DNA of 64,000 bases, taken from NCBI GenBank assembly GCA_030427825.1, contig JAUICO010000007.1:417-64416 (forward strand), in the 5' to 3' direction. The DNA comes from a bacterium. GTDB lineage: Bacteria > Myxococcota_A > Bradymonadia > REDH01. The position numbers were made by a program, and so were the translations under genes. The notes under the pieces are model-generated. The model ran no database searches. It had not been told where the DNA came from and saw only the letters and a list, made by a program, of their open reading frames with translations. Shown piece after piece: positions 19,949 to 40,212 of this stretch (the first letter of the stretch is position 1; each line of letters opens with the position of its first letter).

Positions 19949-22174
19949 ATGCCTGTTATCGCCCTCGACAATGGAACCTTTCTTCGCCCGGACAAGGACG
20001 GTCGCTTTCGCTACAAAGTGCACCAGGTGCTTGGCAGTGGCGGCTTCGGGATCACCTATCTGGCCCACGATCGCGACCTTGATGGCGCAGTGGTCATCAA
20101 GGAGCTCGCCTTTGAGGGCGCCTGCTACCGTGAGACGACGGCGATCCAGATCTTTGCGTTGCCCGGCAAAGAGGCCATCCACAACCGCCTGCTTGAGAAG
20201 TTCCAGGACGAAGCTCGAAAGCTGAACCGCTTCCGCAGTCCCTACATCGTGCGCGTGACCGATGTGTGGCTCGAACGCGGGACCGCGTACTACGCGATGG
20301 ACTTCGTCGAGTCCTCCCGATTTCTCGGCGACGGAAAGATGCCGCGGCCGGTTCCCTGGCCTGACGCCGAGCAGTGGGCATTGCAGCTGCTCGAGGCCCT
20401 CGAAGAGGTCCACTCTGCGGGGCTGGTACACGGCGACATCAAACCCGAAAACGTCCTGCTCAATGAGCGCGAGCAGGTAGTACTGATCGACTTCGGCACG
20501 GCCCGCGAAGAAAACGAGTTCAAGCGTACGGTGACTTCGGCGGCCTATACTCCGGGCTACGCGCCGCCGGAGCTGATGCTGCCGACGAAGACGCGGCCGC
20601 CAGGCCCCTGGACTGACCTCTATTCCTGGGCGATGCTCGTCTACGGGCTTGTGCGCCCTCACTACGGCCCGGGCGGCACGCCGCTGGACGCGATGGTGCG
20701 TACCGGCAGCCTGATGCAGGGCGGCCAGCCTGATCCCTACAACAACGCCGCGGCGGACCTGCTCGCGGCAGGCCTGCCGCCGAACTGGGCAAACCTTCTC
20801 GGTGCGTGCCTCAACCTGGATGCGGATCGGCGTCCGCGCAGCGTCGCTGACGTTCGCAGCCATCTGCACTCCCCGTCGACCAGCCCCCTGCAGGCCTCCG
20901 GTCCGACAGTGCACGATCAGCAGGCCATGCTGGCCGCGTCTGCGGATACCCAGATTCCTACGGATCCGGGATTTCGCACGGGTAGCAACACGACGCCATC
21001 CTCGGGACGTAACGGCCTCATGATCGCCCTCGCGGTCTTTGTCTTTCTCCTGGTCGCGGCGGGTGCGGTCGGGCTCTTCTTCCTGATCAGCGGGATGAAC
21101 AAGAAGGCAAACGACGACGCAGGCGCCGAGGTTGCAACGATCGATGTGGGGTCCAGACCTGCAGCAGATGCGGGATCGGGCACGGAGGCGACGTCGGATA
21201 CATCCGGCACGGCGCCCGTACCGGACGTCGCGGTGGTCGATACGAGCGCCGGCGCAGATACCGCGCTCGCCGCAGCGGCTGATACCGGCAGCGAGCAGGC
21301 AAAGGCCTACGGAGCGAGCTGCGAAGCGGGCGATGATTGCGCGTCCGCCGTCTGCTCCCGCGGCGTGTGCGTAGCCGAGGGCTTCGCGCACATTCCCGGC
21401 GGCACCTTTACGATGGGCTCACCGGCTTCGGAGCCCGGGCGCGACCGAGATGAAGCAGCGCACCCGGTCACGATCAGCGCCTTCTCGTTGATGGAGACAG
21501 AGGTCACACAGGGGCAGTGGGAGGCCGTCATGGGCACCACTCCGTCGCGCTTTCGCAGCTGCGGCGACAACTGTCCGGTCGAGCGCGTGAGCTGGTTCGA
21601 TGCCGTCGCCTATCTGAACGCGTTGTCGCGAAGCAACGGCCTGCAGGAATGCTACGTGATGTCGGGCTGCCGCGGCCGCGCCGGCGGTGGCTGCCGCAGC
21701 ACGCGGGCCGACGAGTGCGTAGGTGACTACCGCTGCCGAAGTGTCAGCTTCGTCGGCACCCGATGCACCGGCTACCGGCTGCCCACCGAAGCGGAGTGGG
21801 AATACGCCGCGCGGGCGGGAACGCAGAGCGCACGCTACTGCGGTGATGACTCATGCATCCCTTCGATCGCGTGGCATGAACAGAACGCCGACGGCTCGTC
21901 GCACCCGATAGGGACAAAGGCGCCCAACGCCTGGGGACTGAATGACATGTTCGGCAACGTCTGGGAGTGGACCTGGGACTGGTACTCTCCCTACGCGACG
22001 GCGCCGTCGACGGACCCCACCGGCCCCCGCGAGGGCGAGTATCGCTCTCGCCGCGGAGCCAGCTGGCAGGACGCATCCACGCGTATTCGCGCGGCCTACC
22101 GAAACGGCACCGATCCTACCGATCGCCGCTCCTTCATCGGCTTCCGCGCCGCCAGGTCCCTGCCGCCCCGCTGA
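19949..22174 (+). CDS. Ser/Thr protein kinase - TM - FGE-sulfatase (SUMF1) domain protein
   Basis: LGSGGFG, VVIKE, HGDIKPEN, DFG, GYAPPE; one TM helix; FTMGS, PVERVSW, RLPTEAEWEYAAR, GNVWEW, GFR. Confidence 0.92.
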   Translation: MPVIALDNGTFLRPDKDGRFRYKVHQVLGSGGFGITYLAHDRDLDGAVVIKELAFEGACYRETTAIQIFALPGKEAIHNRLLEKFQDEARKLNRFRSPYIVRVTDVWLERGTAYYAMDFVESSRFLGDGKMPRPVPWPDAEQWALQLLEALEEVHSAGLVHGDIKPENVLLNEREQVVLIDFGTAREENEFKRTVTSAAYTPGYAPPELMLPTKTRPPGPWTDLYSWAMLVYGLVRPHYGPGGTPLDAMVRTGSLMQGGQPDPYNNAAADLLAAGLPPNWANLLGACLNLDADRRPRSVADVRSHLHSPSTSPLQASGPTVHDQQAMLAASADTQIPTDPGFRTGSNTTPSSGRNGLMIALAVFVFLLVAAGAVGLFFLISGMNKKANDDAGAEVATIDVGSRPAADAGSGTEATSDTSGTAPVPDVAVVDTSAGADTALAAAADTGSEQAKAYGASCEAGDDCASAVCSRGVCVAEGFAHIPGGTFTMGSPASEPGRDRDEAAHPVTISAFSLMETEVTQGQWEAVMGTTPSRFRSCGDNCPVERVSWFDAVAYLNALSRSNGLQECYVMSGCRGRAGGGCRSTRADECVGDYRCRSVSFVGTRCTGYRLPTEAEWEYAARAGTQSARYCGDDSCIPSIAWHEQNADGSSHPIGTKAPNAWGLNDMFGNVWEWTWDWYSPYATAPSTDPTGPREGEYRSRRGASWQDASTRIRAAYRNGTDPTDRRSFIGFRAARSLPPR

Positions 22175-26930: not shown

Positions 26931-27902
26931 TCAGACGCAGCCCACGGGTTTTGGCAGCCCGGCCAGGCGGGCGGCCTCCATCGCCGGCGCGCTCGGGAAC
27001 ATCGTGTACAGCTGCTTTGTCGCGACCGGAGACGCGACGCCGATGCGTCGCACGTTCGGCGATGCACCGCTCGCGGCGTACTCGCTCTGCAACCACTCAA
27101 TGAGCTGCCAGTGAGCGTCGCTCAACTCGTAGCCGACTTCGGCGGCGATGGCTGCGGCGAACTCCCGAGTCCACGTGCCGGCGTCGACGAGGAAGCCCTC
27201 GGAGCTCATCTCGTAGCCGGGAATCGAGAGGGTCTTCGCGCCCCCGGCCGGCGTGGGTGCGGCGGCGGCTGTGCCCGCCGCATGGTCCTGCTCTGCGTCG
27301 GCTCGTGGCCGCGTCGGCCTCGGTGGCGCGTTACCGGCGGGCGGAAGCGCCCGCCGCCGAAGTGAGGGCGCCAGGCGACTCTCAAGACGCTTCGCACGAC
27401 TCTTTGATGCGTGGGTCTTCGCGCTGGTTCTGCCTACATGGCGCAGCATGTTGAGAACGAGCGCCAGTCCGCGGCGGGTGTCCGGATTTCGCGCTGCTTT
27501 CAACATCCCCAGCAGCGACTTCGGCTTCTTGCCCGGGTCGTCTTTCACAGCTTCGGCGGCCTCGCGCGCCAGCTCGACCATGTCGGGTTGGGTGAATTCC
27601 CTCAGGGTGTCGATCAGGTAGACGATGTTGTCGCCAAGCTGTTCGAGGTCTTCGTCGTCGTAGGAGGTCACAACCGTGTCGACGATGCGTTGTGTGTGCT
27701 TCGCGAATCGAAAGTAGCCGCGCTCCTCGACCTCTGCGAGCCGCTCAGAACCAACCCCCATCATCTTTCGGAGGATCGGCGAAAACTCGTCGATCACATC
27801 GCGGTATGCCTGCTCGCGTCGCGTCAGCACTTCAAGCTGCGCGCTGATCGCGTCGAGGCGTGCTTCGATCGATTCAATGTTTGCTTCGTTGTTGTTGCTC
27901 AT
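26931..27902 (-). CDS. DUF1641-like domain fused to a TusE/DsrC-family sulfur relay domain
   Basis: N-part 'SLLGMLKAARNPDTRRGL' (DUF1641-like); C-part EGFL...W...A, L...HW..I, LY..FP..P..AARLAGLPKPVGCV. Confidence 0.82.
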   Translation of the reverse strand: MSNNNEANIESIEARLDAISAQLEVLTRREQAYRDVIDEFSPILRKMMGVGSERLAEVEERGYFRFAKHTQRIVDTVVTSYDDEDLEQLGDNIVYLIDTLREFTQPDMVELAREAAEAVKDDPGKKPKSLLGMLKAARNPDTRRGLALVLNMLRHVGRTSAKTHASKSRAKRLESRLAPSLRRRALPPAGNAPPRPTRPRADAEQDHAAGTAAAAPTPAGGAKTLSIPGYEMSSEGFLVDAGTWTREFAAAIAAEVGYELSDAHWQLIEWLQSEYAASGASPNVRRIGVASPVATKQLYTMFPSAPAMEAARLAGLPKPVGCV

Positions 27903-27906
27903 GTGC

Positions 27907-29136
27907 TCAGCTCCACTTTCCGGCTGTCGCCATGCGGTGATCGATCGGGAGCTCTTCGCCCTTGATCAGCAGATTCCAGTACACCCAGCGAAACCCGAGC
28001 TTTCCCCAATGGTTCACGTGGCTCTCCTCCAGGAGGGTAAAGGGACCGACGCCGGGCAGCGGAAAGCGACCCGGCAGGGGTTCCGTCGTGTAGTTGAAGT
28101 CGATCAGCATTCCCCTGCCGCCACCGGTCTCGATAAAGCAGTTCGCGTGGCCATCGAAGTCAGGCAGCAGCGGGCGATCCGCGATGTAGCGGAGTACGTT
28201 TTCGACCAGAACCTCTGCCTGGAAGTGAGCGACACTGCCCGCCTTTGAGGTAGGCAGGTCCGTACAGTCACCGAGTGCGAAGATGTTGTCGAAGGCCCTG
28301 GTCTGAAGGGTGTGTTTGTCCGTAGGGACAAAGGCGAAGTCATCGCCGATCTCGGAACGCTCGATGGCTTCACTGCCACTGTGCAGGGGAACCGTAACGA
28401 GCAGGTCATATTCTTCGCTGCGCCCATCGTAGCTGCGGAGCGTGCGCTGCTCGCCGTCCACCGCAGAAGTCGCCCAGTTTGCGTGCACCGTGATGCCGCG
28501 CTCTTCGAGCAGGCCGCCGAGGGCGGCGCTCGCGCGTGGCTTGGTGAAAGCGCCCGAAAGCGGCGTCGCGTAGATGAGCTCGGTCTGCTCTCGCAGTCCC
28601 TTCTTCCGCAGAAAATCATCTGCGAGAAAGAGAAACTCCAGCGGCGCTACCGGGCACTTGATGGGCATATCGACGACGTTGAGGACCATCCTGCCGCCCG
28701 CCCATCCATACAGAAAATCCCGTAGCTTCAGTGCGCCATCCAGTGTGTAGAAGTCGAACGCGGTGTCCTGCCAGCCGGCATCGGTCATTCCCTCGGTCTG
28801 TTCGGGCACGATCCGGGCGCCCGTGGACAGAATCAGCAGGTCGTATGCCAGCATCGTGCCGTCAGCGAGGGCGACAACGCGGGCTTCCGGATCCACCCGG
28901 TCTACTTCGCTGATCACGAAGTCGACGCCCCCGGGGAGGAAGTTCTGTCGGGGTCTGGTGATGCTGGCGGGATCGTAGAGTCCGAAGGGCAGAAAGAGGA
29001 GCCCGGGCTGGTAGAGGTGGGTCCCGTCCCGGTCGACGACGGTGATGCCCCACTCTCGCTCGGACAGCTCTTTGCGGAGCTTGTTCGCCATCATCGTCCC
29101 GGCGGTTCCCGCGCCGAGAATTACAATTTTCTTCAC
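27907..29136 (-). CDS. sqr: Sulfide:quinone oxidoreductase (type III-like)
   Basis: GAGTAG FAD motif, HLYQPG, IKCPVAPLE, GDCTDLPTSKAG, FDGHANCFIE; GTG start. Confidence 0.88.
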   Translation of the reverse strand: MKKIVILGAGTAGTMMANKLRKELSEREWGITVVDRDGTHLYQPGLLFLPFGLYDPASITRPRQNFLPGGVDFVISEVDRVDPEARVVALADGTMLAYDLLILSTGARIVPEQTEGMTDAGWQDTAFDFYTLDGALKLRDFLYGWAGGRMVLNVVDMPIKCPVAPLEFLFLADDFLRKKGLREQTELIYATPLSGAFTKPRASAALGGLLEERGITVHANWATSAVDGEQRTLRSYDGRSEEYDLLVTVPLHSGSEAIERSEIGDDFAFVPTDKHTLQTRAFDNIFALGDCTDLPTSKAGSVAHFQAEVLVENVLRYIADRPLLPDFDGHANCFIETGGGRGMLIDFNYTTEPLPGRFPLPGVGPFTLLEESHVNHWGKLGFRWVYWNLLIKGEELPIDHRMATAGKWS

Positions 29137-31691: not shown

Positions 31692-32393
31692 GTGATAACC
31701 AAACTTCCGCGTTGGGTTGAGGTCGGTGGGTTTTCGCTGGCATGCATTGCTGGAGCCACCAATGCAATCGGCGTGTTGGGCTTTAAGCATCAGGCAGTTT
31801 CGCATCTTACGGGAACGTCAACCCTGCTTGGCATCGCCGTTGCTGAACTACGTCCTGCCGATGCAGCTCACCTGCTGGGCATCATTCTGTCCTTTGTCCT
31901 GGGCGCAGCATTTGCCGGTGCGTTGGTCGGCGGAGCCGCATTACAGCTTGGTAGACGTTATGGCGTTGCCCTCGTTATTGAGTCGCTGCTCCTGATGGGC
32001 GCAATGTATCTGTTGTTGGCGGATTCCACATTCGGTCACTACCTCTCATCAGCAGCGTGTGGGCTGCAAAATGGCATGGTCAGCACATACAGCGGGGCGA
32101 TTGTTCGCACGACGCATATGTCCGGGTTGTTCACCGATCTCGGCACAATGTTTGGAGCATGGTTGCGCGGGCATCCGTTCAACTCTCGTCGGGCAGTGCT
32201 GTATCTGCTGCTCATCCTGGGTTTCGTTCTTGGCGGTAGCATCAGCGCAGTGCTCTTTGACAAGATTCAGTTTCATGCCATGCTTTTTCCAGCGTGCGGG
32301 GCTGCGGCACTGGCCGCGATCTACTGGGGTATTCTGGCCGCAAGAACGTATCGGAAGCGCCTGAGCGACCGTCCGGACAGGTCGAGCACATAG
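31692..32393 (+). CDS. YoaK (DUF1275) family membrane protein
   Basis: LA.IAG..NA, VSHLTG, ACGLQN, RTTHMSG..TDLG; GTG start after GGGGAGG. Confidence 0.9.
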   Translation: MITKLPRWVEVGGFSLACIAGATNAIGVLGFKHQAVSHLTGTSTLLGIAVAELRPADAAHLLGIILSFVLGAAFAGALVGGAALQLGRRYGVALVIESLLLMGAMYLLLADSTFGHYLSSAACGLQNGMVSTYSGAIVRTTHMSGLFTDLGTMFGAWLRGHPFNSRRAVLYLLLILGFVLGGSISAVLFDKIQFHAMLFPACGAAALAAIYWGILAARTYRKRLSDRPDRSST

Positions 32394-32436
32394 CATTGCG
32401 CCGAACGATGCGTGACGTGTTGAGCCGACCGGTCGC

Positions 32437-33732
32437 CTACAACACCGCTTTGACCGCACTCGTCAGCTGCGACAGGTCATCCGCCGCGATGACGTAGGGC
32501 GGCATGATGTAGACCAGGTTGCGAAAGGGGCGAATCCAAACACCCTGTTCGACGAAGCTTCGCTGCAACGCCGCCACGTCGCACGCGTTCTCAAGCTCGA
32601 CGACGCCGATCGCGCCGAGCACTCGGACGTCAGCTACGCCTGGCGTGTTCGCGCAGGGTATGAGCTCGCGTCGCAGCTGGGCTTCTATTGCAGCGACCTG
32701 TGCCGCCGAGTCATCGCGCCGAAGGAGGTCGAGCGAAGCCGCGGCAACAGCGCAGGCGAGGGGGTTCGCCATGAAGGTCGGGCCGTGCATGAACACGCCG
32801 GCTTCGCCCCGTGAGATGGTCTCTGCGACCTCAGCCGTTGTCAGCGTCGCGGCCAGGGTCATGTATCCGCCGGTCAGCGCCTTGCCGAGGCAGAGGATGT
32901 CGGGGCTGATGTCCGCGTGCTCACAGGCGAAGGTCTGTCCGGTGCGACCGAAACCGGTGGCAATCTCATCGGCGATGAGCAGCACGTCGTAGCGGGTGCA
33001 GAGCGCGCGTGCGGCACCGAGAAAGTCCGCTGAATAAAACCACATTCCGCCGGCGCCCTGTACGATGGGCTCAAGGATCAGCGCGGCGATCTCATCGGCC
33101 TTCGACATCAGCAGCGCCTCAAGCGCGTTGATGTCCGAGTCTGCGCTACCCGGCGAGGCGCCGAAACGCGCCGCCGGCTTCGGCGCAAAGAGCTGCGTAG
33201 GCAGCGACTCGCCGAAGAGGTGGTGCATGCCGCCGACCGGGTCACACACACTCATCGCTGCGAATGTGTCTCCATGGTAGCCGCCGCGAATCGTCGCCAG
33301 TCGCCGCTTGGAAGGCCGACCGCACGCGTGCCAGTACTGCAGCGCCATCTTGTGCGCGACTTCGACGCTAACCGAACCCGAGTCGCAGAAGAACACACGA
33401 TCCAGGCCGGTGGGCGTGATGTCTACGAGCGCACGACCGAGCGCGACGGCCGGTTCGTGTGTGATTCCACCAAACATGACGTGCGCCATATTGCCCAGCT
33501 GTCGGGTCACGGCGTCGTTCAACTCGGGCACGTTGTAGCCGTGGATCGCGGCCCACCAGGAGGACATGCCGTCGATCAGCTCGCGGCCGTCGGTCAGGCG
33601 CAGGCGCACGCCGGTCGCGCCCTCTACCGGATACACCGGCAGCGGATTGATCATGGAAGTGTAGGGGTGCCAGAGGTGCTCCCGATCCCAACGAAGCAGC
33701 TCGGCGCTCGGGTCCTCGGTTACCCCGCTCAT
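32437..33732 (-). CDS. bioA: Adenosylmethionine-8-amino-7-oxononanoate aminotransferase
   Basis: HLWHPYTS, DGMSSWW, DSGSVSVEVA, YHGDTF, ADEIATGFGRTG, GKALTGG, HGPTFMANP. Confidence 0.97.
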   Translation of the reverse strand: MSGVTEDPSAELLRWDREHLWHPYTSMINPLPVYPVEGATGVRLRLTDGRELIDGMSSWWAAIHGYNVPELNDAVTRQLGNMAHVMFGGITHEPAVALGRALVDITPTGLDRVFFCDSGSVSVEVAHKMALQYWHACGRPSKRRLATIRGGYHGDTFAAMSVCDPVGGMHHLFGESLPTQLFAPKPAARFGASPGSADSDINALEALLMSKADEIAALILEPIVQGAGGMWFYSADFLGAARALCTRYDVLLIADEIATGFGRTGQTFACEHADISPDILCLGKALTGGYMTLAATLTTAEVAETISRGEAGVFMHGPTFMANPLACAVAAASLDLLRRDDSAAQVAAIEAQLRRELIPCANTPGVADVRVLGAIGVVELENACDVAALQRSFVEQGVWIRPFRNLVYIMPPYVIAADDLSQLTSAVKAVL

Positions 33733-35159
33733 GGGAACACCAGGATCTGGTCTTCGCCGTACTCTTCGATCAGACCGTCGACGTACTCCAGGAAGCTCGC
33801 GCGGCGGTTCTCGAAGCCTTCAAAACGGTCCACCTCGTCGTCATGCCAGGGCGAGGGTGGGAACAGGAACTGGGACACACGCTCAAGGTCCATCCAACGG
33901 ATCGCGTTGACGGTCCTGCGCGAGAAGAGCTGTACCCGCTGAAGTCGGCGGAAGGTGCGGGTGGGTGCACCCCATCGGCTCAGCTGCATCGTCGCGCCAT
34001 TGTCGATAGAAAGAAAGCGCCCGTTATCGAACTGACAGTTCACCCCGAAGAACGCATCTGAGTAGCGGTCCCAGTTGTTCAGCAGGAAATCAAACACGTG
34101 AAGGTTTGAGAGCTGATGAACAAACTCGAATCCCGATGTTCCCGCTGCGCGATCCATCATGCCCCGGTGATTGTTTCGGTACTGCCCGCGCATGCCCTGG
34201 ATGGCTTCGTAGAAGGTCAGATTCTCGATGGTCTCGCGAGGCGTGCGGACGCTGAGCAGAGCGCGCCAGCCGCCATGGTGTTCGAGGGGAAACGTGGTAA
34301 ATCCGGGGACCCACTCTTTCATCGTGCCGTGCAGCCAGTGCACACCGTCGGCGTCTTCGAACCAGATGAGATCCGAGAAGTTGTTTGAGTAGCCGGAGGT
34401 CGCCTCAAGGCTTGAGAGGCCGTAGAGCTCCAGGAAGTCCTCTTCACGAATCCGCACTTCGCGATTGTAGGGCACATCAAACTCGCAGTGAATCAGCGCG
34501 CACAGGCGGTACGCAGCAATCTCGGCGCGGTAATTTGATTGCTCGCGGGTTTGCATCGGCTTGAAAGCGGCGACGGTCTCCCCGTTGAGGCGAAACTTCA
34601 GCGTCACAGTGCTTCCACCGCCGAGTCGCTGAATCTCGTCGATGTGTTCGCCGGGTACGATGGTCAGTACATCCGGTGGCAGAAACACTTCGTCGTACAT
34701 GAAGGAGTCGTACCAGAGCTCAACAAACTCGGCTCGCCGGTCGGCGAACGTCTCTGCGCATGCCCAGGCGATGGTCCGGGCGTACTCGAGGTCTCCGGCT
34801 TCGATGGCCAGGGTCACTACCGCGATGTATGCGTCCCGATCGTCGGGATCGGGCTGCCAGACTTCGAGCATGGACACCGCGGATTCCACACGGTGGGTTG
34901 ATACGAGGTGAACGAAGAGGGTGCGTTCAACGTCGCTGTCGCTGGCGCCCACGGTGAACAGCGCGTCTCGCACAGCGCTCCGTGCAGTGCGTGTTGCGTC
35001 AGTGACCGCAGCGGCAAGCTGTGCGCTTTCCGCAGCTTCCTGAGCCTGCTCCAGGGTTGTGTCGATGAGGTCGCCGCCGCCCACGGTGGGGTTCGGCTGC
35101 TGCGCTCCGCCACACGCGGTGACCAGGCACAGCGCCAGAAGCATCGAAATTCGTTTCAC
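33729..35159 (-). CDS. Lipoprotein with a FAM20C/Four-jointed-like atypical kinase domain
   Basis: Lipobox LVTAC; GGGST loop, AAFKP, AEIAAYRL, FDFLLNNWDR, SIDNG in the order and spacing of FAM20/Fj kinases. Confidence 0.75.
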   Translation of the reverse strand: MKRISMLLALCLVTACGGAQQPNPTVGGGDLIDTTLEQAQEAAESAQLAAAVTDATRTARSAVRDALFTVGASDSDVERTLFVHLVSTHRVESAVSMLEVWQPDPDDRDAYIAVVTLAIEAGDLEYARTIAWACAETFADRRAEFVELWYDSFMYDEVFLPPDVLTIVPGEHIDEIQRLGGGSTVTLKFRLNGETVAAFKPMQTREQSNYRAEIAAYRLCALIHCEFDVPYNREVRIREEDFLELYGLSSLEATSGYSNNFSDLIWFEDADGVHWLHGTMKEWVPGFTTFPLEHHGGWRALLSVRTPRETIENLTFYEAIQGMRGQYRNNHRGMMDRAAGTSGFEFVHQLSNLHVFDFLLNNWDRYSDAFFGVNCQFDNGRFLSIDNGATMQLSRWGAPTRTFRRLQRVQLFSRRTVNAIRWMDLERVSQFLFPPSPWHDDEVDRFEGFENRRASFLEYVDGLIEEYGEDQILVFP

Positions 35160-35165
35160 GTGGAG

Positions 35166-37130
35166 TCAGGGGTTGAGTGTAAAGTCGTCAAGCAGGTCGC
35201 CGTCGATCGCGATCGCACGCAGGCGCAGCTGTTCGGGGGTAACGTCCACCACGCAATAGTGGTGTTCACGCACACAGATCCGATTGATCTCGTCAGGCTC
35301 TGCGGGATACGACGGCGCGCCGCCGCCGCCGGAGATCACGTAGGTGACGCCATTGCGCTCGTTGGAACGGCCATACAAATGGTCGTGCCCCAGGATAACA
35401 AGCTGCACACCGTGTTCTTCGAAGAGCGGCACAAGGTGGTTCTGCACATTGAGGTCGCCGGGCTTGCGACTCGGTGTGCATGCGTAGGGCGGGTGATGAA
35501 AGAAGGCGACCTTCCAGATTGCGGTCGAGCTACGGAGCGCCTGTTCCAGCCACACATATTGGGGAGAGCCGGGTTCGTAGTTGTTGCTTGAATTGATGCC
35601 AAAGAAGTCGACATCGCCGTGCTGAAAACCGTACCAGGCTTCGATGCCGGGAAGTGACATGTAGTGGTAGTAGCGAAGGTGATTGCCTTCGTGGTTCCCG
35701 ATCGTGGTGTAGTAGGGGAGTGTACTCATCAGTGGTAACGCCGGCCCGAAGAATTCGTCCTGATACTCGTGCCAGGAGCCTCCGGTCGTCACCAGGTCAC
35801 CGGTAGAGAGGACAAAGCGCGCGTCGTTCTCGTGGGCCGCCGTCCACATCTCGGACACGACCTGCCGGTGCACATCGATCTGCGTTCGGTTGTCGCCATA
35901 CGCGATGAACGTGAACGGCGTACCGGCTTCGACAGAGCTGCGAAAGGACGAGACCGGCGAAGCGAACCCGTCCGGTGCAGTGCCGCCAACGTGGTAGGGC
36001 ACAGGGACCGTGTTTGCGCGATAGTAGTAGCGTGTGTTTGGCTCCAGGTCGGGCAGGACCACTTCGTGCAGCGCCGAGGCCGTCTCGGGCGCCGCCGCGA
36101 TACGATGCAGTCCGTTGGGTGTCGTTCCGTATTCGACGAAACCGTAGCCGGGCACGTTCGACTCCCAGCTCACGGTCACCCGGTCATGTTCCAGCTGCTG
36201 CAGGTAGGGCGTCTTCAAGAATCCCTGCGAAGCGTAGGACATCAGCTCGAAGTCGAAGAACAGTGGTCTTCGGCCCGCATTGCTTCGTTTGAAGATGGCG
36301 ACCGAGATTTGGTTTTCGCCCTCGCGCAGCATGCCGGGGTCCAGAGGAAGAATGCTCATCTGCCATCGGTTCGCCGATGTTTGGTTGACGTGGTCTTCGA
36401 GCCAGATCGGAGTCGCGTGGGCACCATGCAGACCGGCGCCGGGCGCTACGTTCGCGCGAAAAATCTCCCTGCCGTTCAGGTACGCGATGGCGGCGCCGGA
36501 GAACTCGATCTCTGCGTGGAGGGCGGCGATAGAGTCGGGGTCGGCCTGGAAGCTGCGGGTGGCGTAGAGTGTGGAGAACCCGGACTCGACCGCGTTCGGG
36601 TCGCTCTCGTCGAAGTCAGCATCGTAGACAATGGTGGTTCGCGTCGGCCGGTCACGTCCATGGCGTCGCCGTCGAGCGTCTTCGACTTCACGCACACCCG
36701 AAAGTGCCTCCCAGGTGCGAATGCTGCGGCCGATGATCGGCGCCGAGACGCGGACGAAACGATCGAGCGGCGAAGGGGCATCGACGGTATCGACGAAGAT
36801 GCAGCGATCCGGTGGGTTGTCGCAGTCCTCGTGAGCGACGGTGTCGAAATCAGCGCGCTCTCCCGCCGTGGCGTCTGCTCCGTTGGGCCAGTTCGGTGGT
36901 GCCCCGTTGTGGCTCAGCCAGATGTCCCACTCTGAACCGGTCGCGATGATCGTCTGCGACTCGACGATGTTGAGGGCGGGGATCGGGGGCACGACGGTGC
37001 TCGCAGGCGCGTTGGCGCGCTGCGCCGTCGCATCCGTGCCGATAGCGAGCACGCAGAAAAGCACACATACGCGGACCGCGCACCCAGAGAGCGCGCGATG
37101 GCCTGCCGTGGCCGGTAGGGGTACGCTCAC
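35166..37130 (-). CDS. Exported purple acid phosphatase-like metallophosphoesterase with FN3 and jelly-roll domains
   Basis: Signal peptide; AYLNGREI..N / GENQISV / FFDFEL accessory domain; HEVVLPDLEPNTRYYY FN3; YGD, GDLV, GNHE, FFHHP, GHDH motifs. Confidence 0.9.
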   Translation of the reverse strand: MSVPLPATAGHRALSGCAVRVCVLFCVLAIGTDATAQRANAPASTVVPPIPALNIVESQTIIATGSEWDIWLSHNGAPPNWPNGADATAGERADFDTVAHEDCDNPPDRCIFVDTVDAPSPLDRFVRVSAPIIGRSIRTWEALSGVREVEDARRRRHGRDRPTRTTIVYDADFDESDPNAVESGFSTLYATRSFQADPDSIAALHAEIEFSGAAIAYLNGREIFRANVAPGAGLHGAHATPIWLEDHVNQTSANRWQMSILPLDPGMLREGENQISVAIFKRSNAGRRPLFFDFELMSYASQGFLKTPYLQQLEHDRVTVSWESNVPGYGFVEYGTTPNGLHRIAAAPETASALHEVVLPDLEPNTRYYYRANTVPVPYHVGGTAPDGFASPVSSFRSSVEAGTPFTFIAYGDNRTQIDVHRQVVSEMWTAAHENDARFVLSTGDLVTTGGSWHEYQDEFFGPALPLMSTLPYYTTIGNHEGNHLRYYHYMSLPGIEAWYGFQHGDVDFFGINSSNNYEPGSPQYVWLEQALRSSTAIWKVAFFHHPPYACTPSRKPGDLNVQNHLVPLFEEHGVQLVILGHDHLYGRSNERNGVTYVISGGGGAPSYPAEPDEINRICVREHHYCVVDVTPEQLRLRAIAIDGDLLDDFTLNP

Positions 37131-37135
37131 GAGAC

Positions 37136-37915
37136 TCAGCTGCCGGTGAAGCGCGGCGTACGCTTCTCTGCGAAGGCAGCCAGCGCTTCGACGCGGTCCT
37201 GTGTCGGTATGGTCCGCTGATACGCATCGCGCTCGATCACCAGGCCGGTCGCAAGATCGTGGTCCATGCCGCGATCCAGAGCGAGCTTCGCCTGCTCGAC
37301 CGCCACCGGGCCGCCTTCAGCGATCAGGCCGGCGATCTCCCCTGCGCGCGCCATCAACCGGCTGCCCTGCACGGACTCCGTAATCAGGCCGATGCGCAGC
37401 GCCTCTTCGGCATCCACGGAGCGGCCGGTGAATATCATCTCCTTGGCTCGCGCCAGCCCGACAATTCGGGGCAGACGCTGGGTGCCGCCGGCGCCGGGGA
37501 TGATCGCGAGGCGCGTCTCCGGCAGGCCCATTTTCGCCGTTGTTGAGGCGATGCGAATGTCGGACGCCAGGGCGAGCTCGAGGCCGCCACCCAGAGCGTG
37601 GCCGTTGATGGCCGCGATCACCGGGCGCGGAAAGCCGGCGATGGCGTTCATCAGCTTCTGCAGGTCCGCGACGGTCTCGCGCACCTGCGTTTCGTCCATG
37701 CCGCTACGCTCTTTCAGGTCCGCGCCGGCGCAGAACGCCCGATCGCCGGCACCCGAAACGATGAGAACGCGCACATCGTCACGCGCTCCCAGCGCGTTCA
37801 ACGTCTCGTTCAGCGCATCCACAAGCTGCCTGTTCAACGCGTTCATGCGCTGGGGGCGGTTCAACACACAGGTCGCCACGCCGTCGTCGATGCTAAAGGT
37901 CAGCGGTCCGCTCAT
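37136..37915 (-). CDS. Enoyl-CoA hydratase (methylglutaconyl-CoA hydratase-like)
   Basis: LNRP..MNAL, AFCAGADLKE, GGGLELALA.D, PE..LAIIPGAGGTQRL; next to HMG-CoA lyase. Confidence 0.92.
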   Translation of the reverse strand: MSGPLTFSIDDGVATCVLNRPQRMNALNRQLVDALNETLNALGARDDVRVLIVSGAGDRAFCAGADLKERSGMDETQVRETVADLQKLMNAIAGFPRPVIAAINGHALGGGLELALASDIRIASTTAKMGLPETRLAIIPGAGGTQRLPRIVGLARAKEMIFTGRSVDAEEALRIGLITESVQGSRLMARAGEIAGLIAEGGPVAVEQAKLALDRGMDHDLATGLVIERDAYQRTIPTQDRVEALAAFAEKRTPRFTGS

Positions 37916-37918
37916 CGC

Positions 37919-38836
37919 TCAAACTGCTCCTGCCTGAGAGTACCGGTAGTATCGTGAATTCAACGTCGCGCCGCAGTCGAGCTCCAGCTGCCGCGAGATA
38001 CGCAGCAACGCCGCGATGTCGATGCCCGTCTCTACCCCGGAGGCGTCCAACATGTTCACGACGTCCTCGGTCCCGACGTTGCCCGAAGCGCCGGGAGCGT
38101 AGGGACAGCCGCCCATGCCGCCGATGGAGGCATCGAGAACGGTTACCCCGACCTCCAGGGCCATCAGCGCGTTGGCAAGCGCGAGGCCGCGCGTGTCGTG
38201 CAGGTGCAGGGCCAGAGCTTCGGTCCCGAACTCTTCGATCGCGCGTGCGCACCCGTCTCGTACCTGCAGCGGGGTGCCCATACCGGTCGTGTCACCGATG
38301 CTCAGCTGGCTGACTCCCATGTCGAGGAGGCTCGCGCCGATGCTGAGCACTCGATCGAAGTCCACGTCGCCTTCGTATGGGCAACCAAACACGGTCGAGA
38401 TATAGCCGCGAACCGTGCAGCCCTCGCTGCGCGCCGCGTCCACGACTTCGCGAATGATCTCTGTGCTCTCAGCGATCGTCCGGTTGATGTTGCGCATGTT
38501 GTGCGTTTCGCTGGACGAAAGAAACACCGCCACGTGAGATACGGTACTTGCGAGCGCGCTCTCCAGTCCGCGCATGTTTGGCACCAGGGCCCAGTAGTTC
38601 ACGTCCGGGTCGCGTCGGATCGAGTCGAATACCGCTGCGGTGTCCGCCATCTGGGGAATCCACTTTGGATGCACGAAGCTGCCGACCTCGATGTCACGGA
38701 TTCCGGCCGCCGTCAGGTCATCGACGAGGCGTACCTTCTGGGCGACGGTCAGTCGAACACGTTCGTTCTGCAACCCATCGCGAGGCCCCACCTCGACGAT
38801 GTTCACATGTTTCGGAAGCTGTGCCGCTGCGCCCAA
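37919..38836 (-). CDS. Hydroxymethylglutaryl-CoA lyase
   Basis: EVGPRDGLQN, FGCPYEG, GDTTG, HLHDTRG, GGCPYAPGASGN. Confidence 0.95.
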   Translation of the reverse strand: MGAAAQLPKHVNIVEVGPRDGLQNERVRLTVAQKVRLVDDLTAAGIRDIEVGSFVHPKWIPQMADTAAVFDSIRRDPDVNYWALVPNMRGLESALASTVSHVAVFLSSSETHNMRNINRTIAESTEIIREVVDAARSEGCTVRGYISTVFGCPYEGDVDFDRVLSIGASLLDMGVSQLSIGDTTGMGTPLQVRDGCARAIEEFGTEALALHLHDTRGLALANALMALEVGVTVLDASIGGMGGCPYAPGASGNVGTEDVVNMLDASGVETGIDIAALLRISRQLELDCGATLNSRYYRYSQAGAV

Positions 38837-38993
38837 TCACACCTCTGCCAAATTCGACGTCCCGGATGTAGCGAGCGTGAGATCACAGTGTCAAGGCGAG
38901 GCGCCGCCTACGCCGGGCACACAGCCCCGTCATCGCGTAGCCTTCGGTTGACGCGGCCACGACGATCCTTAGTGATGCCGGTGAGGAACGCCA

Positions 38994-39407
38994 GTGACCG
39001 AACGTCGGGAAACAGACCGTCCGCTGCTGCTCTTTGATGGAGTCTGCAACCTCTGTCACAGCTCGGTGAACTTCGTGATCGATCGTGATCCGGACGAAGT
39101 CTTCGACTTTGCGTCGCTGCAATCGGAACACGCTCGCGAAGTGCTCGCCGGCTTTGGGGTCACGCCGAAGATCGACACCATTTACCTCGTGGAGGGCGGG
39201 CGCCTGTACGAGCGTTCGACAGCCGCGCTTCGGATCGCCCGGCGGCTGCGCGGCGCCTGGCCGCTGATGGCGGCGTTTCTCATCGTGCCGCGCCCGATTC
39301 GCGACGGCGTCTACCGCTTCATCGCGAATCGACGTTATCGCTGGTTCGGTAAAGAAGAGGCGTGCCGGATTCCCACGCCTGAGCTACAAGCGCGATTCCT
39401 CGGCTGA
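38994..39407 (+). CDS. DCC1-like thiol-disulfide oxidoreductase (DUF393)
   Basis: FDGVCNLC, FASLQS, RD.VY.FIA.RRY.WFG. Confidence 0.92.
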   Translation: MTERRETDRPLLLFDGVCNLCHSSVNFVIDRDPDEVFDFASLQSEHAREVLAGFGVTPKIDTIYLVEGGRLYERSTAALRIARRLRGAWPLMAAFLIVPRPIRDGVYRFIANRRYRWFGKEEACRIPTPELQARFLG

Positions 39408-39462
39408 TCGCCGACAGATCTGCGCCTTCGCACGCACCTGACCATCCCATGAGCTCCCTGCC

Positions 39463-40212
39463 ATGAACTCCCTTCACAGCGGCTGCGGCCCACGACCAAC
39501 CGCACGACGCGCCTTCTTCGACTACTGCACCTGCTGCGAGATCTTCGAAGTCTCCCGCGAGCCCATGCGCGCCGCGACCCTCGCTGAGCTGCGCGCGACG
39601 GCGCCTGAGGGGTTCATTTATACGACCTTCGCGGACCGATGGATTGGGTTGGATCCGCTGGACCAGCGCGGACCGGCGCCTCTGGACCTGCCGAAGTCTG
39701 AGCTGGGCATGATGCGACCTACAGCCGCCAACGCGACGCTCTGGGAGCGGACTCGCCGGCAGGCAGAGGCCGTCGCTGCAGATTACGTCTACTTCAGGCC
39801 CGCGCCCTCATTCTCGCCGTCGACAGCCAATCGGGACGCTCTGCGAGCCTTTCGACGGGACATCATCGGCGACGTTCCCTTCGGAATCGTGTGGGAGGTC
39901 CGCGGCCTCTGGGACCTCGAAGATGCCCGTGAGCTAGCCGCAGAGCTCGACATCCAGGTCGCATGCGACCCCTACGTGGACGACGAGTTTCCCGAGATTG
40001 GCGAAGGCAACGCCTACTACATTCTTGACCGCCCCAGAGGCCGGCGCGTCTTCGAGGACGACGACTGCGAGGACCTCTTCGACTACTTCGAGCAGCATCC
40101 GGCCGGCGTCATCGCCGTCTTTCGGGGCCCCGAGCGAGCACGCAACGCCTTGATGTTCAATCGGCATCGACAGCGCTACGAGACCATCAACGGAGCGATC
40201 GGCGGCGCTTGA
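39463..40212 (+). CDS. DUF72-like protein (divergent)
   Basis: 'P.SF.P...N', 'WE.RG.W' and 'CDP' segments resemble DUF72 TIM-barrel proteins. Confidence 0.55.
   Translation: MNSLHSGCGPRPTARRAFFDYCTCCEIFEVSREPMRAATLAELRATAPEGFIYTTFADRWIGLDPLDQRGPAPLDLPKSELGMMRPTAANATLWERTRRQAEAVAADYVYFRPAPSFSPSTANRDALRAFRRDIIGDVPFGIVWEVRGLWDLEDARELAAELDIQVACDPYVDDEFPEIGEGNAYYILDRPRGRRVFEDDDCEDLFDYFEQHPAGVIAVFRGPERARNALMFNRHRQRYETINGAIGGA

Follow-up and report, generated by a model that had tools for sequence, protein, structure and literature searches.

The window considered here, a stretch of 64,000 nucleotides of contig JAUICO010000007.1 (GenBank assembly GCA_030427825.1, a bacterium of the Bradymonadia), contains two adjacent genes on the reverse strand. 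One encodes a predicted exported metallophosphoesterase with the architecture of purple acid phosphatases (PAP, 35166..37130, 654 aa), assigned from its open reading frame (ORF), its Pfam matches and a structure model. The other encodes a lipoprotein in which a helical N-terminal domain precedes a FAM20-like kinase domain (KIN, 33729..35159, 476 aa), assigned from its ORF, its homologues and an AlphaFold2 (AF2) model. A FAM20-like kinase beside an enzyme of the acid phosphatase type, both exported, is a combination rarely seen in bacteria. The initial annotation had proposed that the two genes form a writer and eraser pair for reversible phosphorylation in the periplasm or at the cell surface. 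The closer examination described below suggests that the kinase represents an unannotated family, predicted from sequence and models to be FAM20-like and extracytoplasmic, and this is a more solid finding than its pairing with the phosphatase.

The PAP stop codon TGA occupies 35166-35168 and, after a spacer of 6 nt (35160..35165) read directly in the sequence, KIN starts with a GTG at 35159, in agreement with the distance and strand first reported. An alternative in-frame ATG at codon 6, where the 471-aa database entry begins, would widen the gap to 21 nt. The GTG start is favored for the signal peptide because it yields a KIN N-terminus bearing Lys and Arg residues.

Architecture of the phosphatase

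PAP matches the Pfam families Metallophos (E 9.6e-16, 59.2 bits) and Pur_ac_phosph_N (E 6.6e-9, 36.7 bits), both above the cut-offs. Pfam (envelopes at residues 311-373 and 428-585) and the structure alignment both place an FN3-like PAP N-domain ahead of a calcineurin-like dimetal domain, the two together covering residues 311-654 (35169..36200). The AF2 model, built from 20 sequences with a predicted local distance difference test score (pLDDT) of 86.1, aligns with kidney-bean purple acid phosphatase over 337 residues (Z 41.5, root-mean-square deviation [rmsd] 2.1); other structure matches are wheat purple acid phytase (Z 37-38), the mammalian enzymes (Z ~31) and PhoD (Z 27.9). The earlier description of the protein as purple-acid-phosphatase-like is thus well founded. 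The orthologue alignment shows conserved blocks GD, GDL, GNHE, HH and GHDH, with the metal-ligand positions D413, D445, N479, H480, H545/H546, H582 and H584 all conserved.

Purple acid phosphatases have seven metal ligands, among them an iron-binding tyrosine that accounts for the color and presumably lies in the GDxxY block, three residues after D445. At this position, assigned from that motif (the phmmer alignment of PAP to purple acid phosphatase chains does not cover the block), the orthologues of PAP carry a threonine (GDLVT) and two distant homologues carry a tyrosine. The threonine implies that the enzyme may not be "purple."

Two further regions precede the catalytic part. A signal peptide is predicted at approximately residues 1-36 (37023..37130), where a charged segment leads into a hydrophobic one (residues 13-31); it was read by inspection rather than by a predictor, the N-termini of the orthologues are similar, and residues 1-44 have a pLDDT below 50 in the model. 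A β-rich module of seven strands in the model then spans residues 164-299 (36234..36641). The motifs from which a jelly-roll-like module had originally been proposed fall within this conserved region, in which N219, G220 and G271 are invariant among 20 sequences. The N-terminal 261 residues have no Pfam match at E ≤ 1, and a match to BetaGal_ABD2 in one distant homologue (E 0.082) is weak and was disregarded. As judged from these sequence features, PAP is a predicted Sec-type exported dimetal phosphomonoesterase with an extra β-rich N-terminal module.

Fold, active site and location of the kinase

KIN begins with Lys and Arg residues, then runs through a hydrophobic segment into a lipobox whose last residue is Cys16 (35112..35159); this cysteine is at least 90% conserved among 49 homologues and is followed by glycine in the consensus. 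Residues 28-155 (34695..35078) form helices in the model and resemble TPR repeats, and PA4667, a TPR protein, is found with the N-terminal part of the family profile (E 9e-4). The kinase domain, delimited by Foldseek, VIA-align and the invariant residues, covers residues 160-476 (33732..34682). No Pfam kinase family is matched by KIN even at E ≤ 10, the sole match being TetR_C_31 (0.39), and NCBIfam contains nothing relevant. A word-based search returned 99 homologues, none with a Pfam domain except for one TPR, and those with named sources come from Bradymonadia or from Myxococcales or Myxococcota metagenome-assembled genomes (MAGs). The exhaustive search extended the family to 539 clusters at 50% identity (E ≤ 0.001).

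The AF2 model of KIN (pLDDT 91.3) retrieves FAM20 structures in all of the top 27 rows of the Foldseek search, with Fam20C at E 2.4e-8. VIA-align likewise ranks FAM20 structures 1 to 9, with Z scores of 17.5-18.8 over 263-286 residues and rmsd values of 3.7-5.0, ahead of PI4KII (15.4), Helicobacter CtkA (14.7), CotH (12.1) and HipA/HipT (~11). The residues K200, E213, C220, C225, D357, N361, N362, D364, R365, N374, D386 and N387 are invariant in the alignment of 49 homologues. The profile of that alignment covers the catalytic loop and the DNG motif in its matches to FAM20C, Fam20A and the worm Golgi casein kinase, whose E values lie between 0.008 and 0.08. K200, E213, D364 and D386-N387 align with the FAM20C motifs; they would correspond to the Lys-Glu pair, the Asp of the catalytic loop and, in the DNG motif, the metal-binding Asp, respectively. 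The invariant Cys220 and Cys225 are consistent with a disulfide. The label "FAM20-like" given to KIN in the initial annotation is therefore right for its fold and active site; the curated FAM20 sequence model, Pfam Fam20C, is not matched. KIN is a lipoprotein with a helical domain followed by a FAM20-type atypical kinase domain.

The genome of the window encodes a second, paralogous kinase on another contig (G000:C15:38495-39415, locus L002), which shares 40% identity with KIN over residues 162-475 and lies in a frame of 600 aa. No phosphatase-like match was found on that contig.

The lipobox of KIN and the charged and hydrophobic N-terminus of PAP, both read by inspection, uphold the claim that the two proteins carry export signals and predict that they share a compartment outside the cytoplasm. 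The longer members of the family point the same way. Of the 20 homologues of long or intermediate length that were scanned (592-1261 aa), 17 carry a single strongly hydrophobic helix ahead of the helical and kinase domains, and three have an N-terminal zinc-ribbon match. A cytoplasmic zinc ribbon followed by a single membrane helix would leave the kinase domain outside the cytoplasm, as does the lipobox, and the family is thus consistently predicted to be extracytoplasmic. In the long forms (L006:6757-10008; P0175, P0204, P0256) the order is zinc ribbon, several hundred low-complexity residues, membrane helix, TPR-like helices and kinase, and these proteins of up to 1261 aa have the layout of a transmembrane receptor.

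The structural neighbors and the long forms bear on the possibility that KIN is not a protein kinase, and would instead phosphorylate an envelope glycan or lipid (Fam20B and PI4KII being precedents with xylose and lipid, respectively, as substrates) or serve as a nucleotide-binding sensor, with PAP at most trimming or recycling. The Fam20 xylose kinase of hydra reaches a Z of 18.5 against 18.8 for Fam20C, PI4KII comes next, the receptor-like layout of the long forms would suit such a role, and the basal animal Fam20 proteins are described as sugar kinases in a passage of PMC5865150. On the other hand, the invariant catalytic and metal-binding Asp residues speak against a pure sensor, no glycan-synthesis gene adjoins the pair in the window, and protein and sugar substrates are not separable by fold comparison. 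We consider this reading unlikely.

Gene order in the window and in related genomes

PAP and KIN are the third and fourth of five co-directional genes in the window. They are preceded by genes for 3-hydroxy-3-methylglutaryl-CoA (HMG-CoA) lyase (37919..38836, Pfam HMGL-like) and enoyl-CoA hydratase (37136..37915, Pfam ECH_1) and followed by a BioA-like class-III aminotransferase gene (32437..33732, Pfam Aminotran_3, E 4.6e-120). The pair is thus wedged between leucine-catabolism genes (37136-38836) and the aminotransferase gene, all on the reverse strand. Lyase and hydratase are 3 nt apart, hydratase and PAP 5 nt, and the KIN stop and the start of the BioA-like gene overlap in ATGA. The five genes are probably co-transcribed. 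A scan of 32000-39500 for promoter and terminator consensus sites showed no excess over shuffled sequence (1 observed vs 1.2 and 6 vs 5.1, respectively), and with counts no higher than in the shuffles the limits of the operon are not addressed by it. Among the nine runs listed, the stretch is present wholly or partly in five DNA runs and in no RNA run.

Orthologues of PAP, defined as matches at E ≤ 1e-60, were sought in 113 genomes of the class and found in 11, of which nine belong to family f1 (the genome of the window, G000, included) and one each to f4 and f6. The kinase family was tallied in 41 related genomes, a class-wide kinase search at 1e-75 being too strict for the purpose. KIN-like matches occur at 59 places in 25 of the 41, with one to four matches per genome having them, and the KIN-bearing genomes amount to 5/12 in f1, 0/9 in f2, 8/8 in f3, 2/2 in f4, 8/8 in f5 and 1/1 in f6. 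Complete genomes belonging to f5 have kinases of the long form. Co-location of the two genes was judged by eye between the two match listings. Five of the 11 genomes with a PAP orthologue (G000, G001, G007, G015 and G028), from three families, have KIN no more than 2.1 kb downstream of it, on the same strand; one further pair of a KIN and a PAP-like gene on the same contig is ~944 kb apart.

The arrangement around the two genes differs among these five. The genome of the window reads lyase - hydratase - PAP - KIN, and G001 and G007 read lyase - hydratase - PAP - X - KIN, where X denotes an additional gene described below. G015 (f4) has BamA-like - PAP - short X - KIN, and G028 (f6) has a Hanks kinase gene, PAP and, 68 nt further, a long-form KIN of another clade. 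The order of PAP followed by KIN survives changed surroundings, because G015 and G028 lack the lyase and hydratase flanks, and PAP identity is 44-48% at the loci where the order, with or without X, is kept. The lyase-hydratase anchor itself is conserved upstream of PAP and/or KIN in f1 and at the metagenome loci L097 and L098, and the genes behind it vary in f1. The BioA-like gene has no match in any relative's locus; in G007 the next ORF runs the opposite way.

Gene X was recognized in relatives at L003:7379-8725, L004:1616-2872 (reverse strand), L007:7400-9016, L013:6881-8431 (reverse strand) and L005:6869-7435, and also at L008-L011 and L015. Its product consists of a conserved N-terminal domain, an acidic low-complexity linker, a single membrane helix close to the C-terminus and a short tail rich in Pro, Ala and Glu; the short copy in G015 has no membrane helix. 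Triplets resembling S-x-E are present in the acidic outer tails of X and were set aside as possible chance occurrences. Since the N-terminal domain matches GYF_2 in only one of five X proteins, and below the cut-off (E 0.0075), the label "GYF-like" is tentative. X lies downstream of PAP in eight loci and upstream of KIN in five and is the most constant member of the trio, being tied to either enzyme more constantly than PAP and KIN are to each other. With one X protein as query, no match at E ≤ 0.01 was found in the genome of the window, which is 97.6% complete. As X stands between PAP and KIN in relatives, their direct contact in the window is most simply explained by a deletion of X. The long kinase of G028 was considered as an X-kinase fusion and this was ruled out, X queries giving no match; its N-terminus is Cys-rich and zinc-ribbon-like, with no Pfam match.

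Several observations weigh against a functional partnership of PAP and KIN. All five genes of the row are tightly packed, the unrelated metabolic genes included, so that the 6-nt gap does not set the pair apart, and direct adjacency of PAP and KIN is seen in the genome of the window and G028. The kinase family is much more widespread than the orthologues of PAP (25/41 vs 11/113 genomes), and a PAP-like gene, in each case the PAP orthologue, is near only five of the 59 KIN places. Each gene is also found without the other. G008 reads lyase - hydratase - PAP - X followed by a gene on the opposite strand, with a related KIN on another contig; G004 reads lyase - hydratase - X - KIN and G019 (f4) X - KIN, both without PAP. 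In genus g4 PAP is present with no KIN found anywhere in all five genomes (77-93% complete): G010 and G012 read lyase - hydratase - PAP - X, the shorter contigs of G003 and G009 read PAP - X, and G011 has a PAP fragment only. Conversely, KIN is matched twice in each of G016, G020 and G032 (95-99% complete), none of which has anything PAP-like at E ≤ 0.001. The closest relatives of the window KIN, at L097 (56% identity) and L098 (40%), follow straight after the hydratase gene with no room for PAP or X, and the window KIN groups with these two in a tree of 66 kinase domains (Shimodaira-Hasegawa-like approximate likelihood ratio test [SH-aLRT] 89). In the same tree, obtained by a quick search with arbitrary rooting, the PAP-linked kinases fall in four separate clades, each with unlinked neighbors; their spread over four clades counts in favor of the link. 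As every combination of presence and absence of PAP, X and KIN occurs, the two enzymes are not an obligate pair.

Wider neighborhoods were also compared. Distant PAP-like genes from other phyla (at most 36% identity, taken from a contig scan with the PAP alignment) served as a control, and in none of their 80 loci is a KIN homologue present, which counts in favor of the link. PAP occurs in three of 65 metagenome loci that hold a KIN relative, and all three nearly duplicate the loci of G007 and G028 and are therefore not independent. From 59 distinct metagenome KIN loci, 169 same-strand neighbor ORFs were collected, of which 106, from 42 loci, were scanned, leaving aside close duplicates among the loci, a number of remote ORFs and those lyase, hydratase, PAP and X genes that had already been identified. 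No phosphatase Pfam domain was found in any of the 106, which also counts against the partnership. Two other contexts recur: RNase G, a long-form KIN and two genes of ~420 and ~500 aa without a Pfam match (L103, L105, L107, L113, L114, L145), and RNase II, KIN and prepilin peptidase (L109, L119, L128, L129, L134, L137, L149). The two genes without a Pfam match may be partners of the long forms.

One alternative is that PAP and KIN are neighbors by descent only, with PAP scavenging phosphate or turning over phytate or nucleotides, KIN serving an unrelated role, and the contact in the window due to the X deletion. Enzymes of the PAP type are broad phosphomonoesterases that often serve phosphate scavenging, which is a further point against a dedicated pair, and phytase and PhoD are among the structural neighbors of PAP. 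All combinations of the three genes sit behind the same lyase-hydratase anchor in f1, genus g4 keeps PAP without any KIN, and the KIN paralogues in housekeeping contexts (RNase G, RNase II, prepilin peptidase) have no phosphatase among the neighbors scanned. However, the order of PAP followed by KIN is kept in f4 and f6 despite different flanks, gene order is seldom kept outside operons at 44-48% protein identity, as far as is generally known, and no Pho-regulon gene was noted among the 48 ORFs of the window. Descent alone is a serious candidate in our view, if still short of even odds.

The same contexts speak to the proposal that KIN is an exported effector used against other cells, at the surface or in vesicles, in the manner of the secreted Helicobacter kinase CtkA, with PAP as a separate digestive enzyme. 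CtkA is among the structural neighbors of KIN, damaged target cells would supply external ATP, and homologues with named sources come from MAGs of Bradymonadia and Myxococcales, which are predatory groups. Set against this, one to four conserved matches per genome in housekeeping contexts are unlike the patchy and mobile pattern of effectors, and in many forms a membrane helix serves as anchor and a domain lies in the cytoplasm. We regard this proposal as very unlikely.

Two gene fusions were observed elsewhere in the window. In a 741-aa ORF at 19949-22174 on the forward strand, a domain of the Hanks Ser/Thr kinase type and one of the FGE-sulfatase (SUMF1-like) type are joined. At 26931-29136 on the reverse strand, a protein of 323 aa combines a DsrC-like domain with DUF1641 and is encoded beside a pyridine nucleotide-disulfide oxidoreductase.

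A putative phosphorylation cycle and its known counterparts

We favor, with a probability of about 0.4, the reading that PAP and KIN share a facultative phosphorylation cycle and that the pair is the remnant of a PAP - X - KIN envelope module. This three-gene module would be set inside the tightly packed five-gene row, and the loss of X from the genome of the window would have brought PAP and KIN together. KIN, if catalytically active as its conserved residues suggest, would phosphorylate an extracytoplasmic protein or glycan, and PAP would remove the phosphate, the two thereby forming a common cycle; each would also work without the other, as non-obligate partners. The X of relatives would add a GYF-like domain in the cytoplasm, an acidic linker, a single membrane helix and a short tail on the outside. 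The conserved adjacency suggested by the initial annotation holds to the extent that three families keep the order, and in two of these the flanks differ; it fails in that each gene stands alone in several genomes and X lies between the two in relatives. The reversible module proposed there fares similarly, as it is supported by the compartment, the folds and the recurring order, and weakened by PAP without KIN in g4 and KIN without PAP in the nearest relatives.

An extracytoplasmic kinase is surprising because the periplasm is held to be without ATP ("There is no ATP in the periplasm," as stated in a passage of PMC7391070), and this too counts against the cycle. One possibility is that KIN is exposed at the surface and draws on external ATP, for instance that released by lysed neighboring cells, as phosphate donor. 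A more far-reaching version is that Bradymonadia-like bacteria operate a true extracytoplasmic cycle mirroring that of animal Fam20C and acid phosphatase, in which KIN modifies proteins or glycans that are secreted or belong to the envelope and PAP reverses this, fed by external ATP and, where X is present, coupled through it to the cytoplasm, with the KIN family as a prokaryotic relative, and possibly the source, of the kinases of the animal secretory pathway; we find this rather doubtful.

To our knowledge, extracytoplasmic phosphorylation, established in animals with Fam20C, has no accepted counterpart in Gram-negative bacteria. A broad unannotated family that combines the FAM20 fold with intact catalytic residues and a predicted position outside the cytoplasm would make bacterial extracytoplasmic phosphorylation directly testable. 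The linkage to PAP provides the first candidate for the reverse reaction, which by the comparative data is at most a facultative partner. The KIN family also bears on the origin of the animal secretory kinases. No description of a bacterial extracytoplasmic FAM20-like family was found in the literature searched, which did not cover supplementary family lists, and a Fam20 review and a paper on Fam20 evolution do not mention bacteria in their text. A survey of the Legionella kinome calls the FAM20 cluster eukaryote- or Metazoa-specific (PMC9758233), and FAM20B is named, with caveats, among five possible contributions of Myxococcota to eukaryotes in a 2026 preprint (10.64898/2026.05.08.723234).

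Animal FAM20 proteins (Fam20C, Fam20B, Fam20A) are the best structural match of KIN and share its catalytic-loop and DNG motifs and its predicted extracytoplasmic site; they transfer phosphate to S-x-E proteins or to xylose. KIN differs from them in an identity of only 14-17%, the lack of a Pfam kinase match, the lipoprotein or single-pass anchor and the added N-terminal TPR-like domain. The spore-coat kinase CotH, CtkA, HipA/HipT and type II PI4K belong to the same branch of kinase-like folds and all score below FAM20; CotH and HipA, unlike KIN, act inside the (mother) cell. Sequence similarity of CotH with Fam20C has been reported (PMC12189002). PAP shares with the plant and bacterial purple acid phosphatases, phytases and PhoD the FN3-like N-domain, the dimetal domain and the metal-binding blocks, and is distinguished from known purple acid phosphatases by an extra N-terminal module of ~250 residues without a Pfam match and perhaps by the threonine at the presumed tyrosine position.

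Bacterial writer and eraser couples are familiar from StkP and PhpP, a Hanks kinase and a PP2C phosphatase encoded next to each other (PMC7011611). The operons of Hanks kinases and PP2C phosphatases resemble the present locus in that a kinase gene adjoins a phosphatase gene, and differ from it in having cytoplasmic catalytic domains with access to ATP and other folds for both enzymes. A parallel is found in animals, where Fam20C is reported to phosphorylate osteopontin and casein (PMC5865150) and osteopontin to lose phosphate to the tartrate-resistant acid phosphatase, which is a purple acid phosphatase (PMC5486932). On that evidence, the same two folds as in KIN and PAP are both found outside the cell and have osteopontin as a common substrate. 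The animal kinase and phosphatase genes are unlinked and their connection is biochemical, whereas at the present locus a non-obligate connection is suggested by gene order alone.

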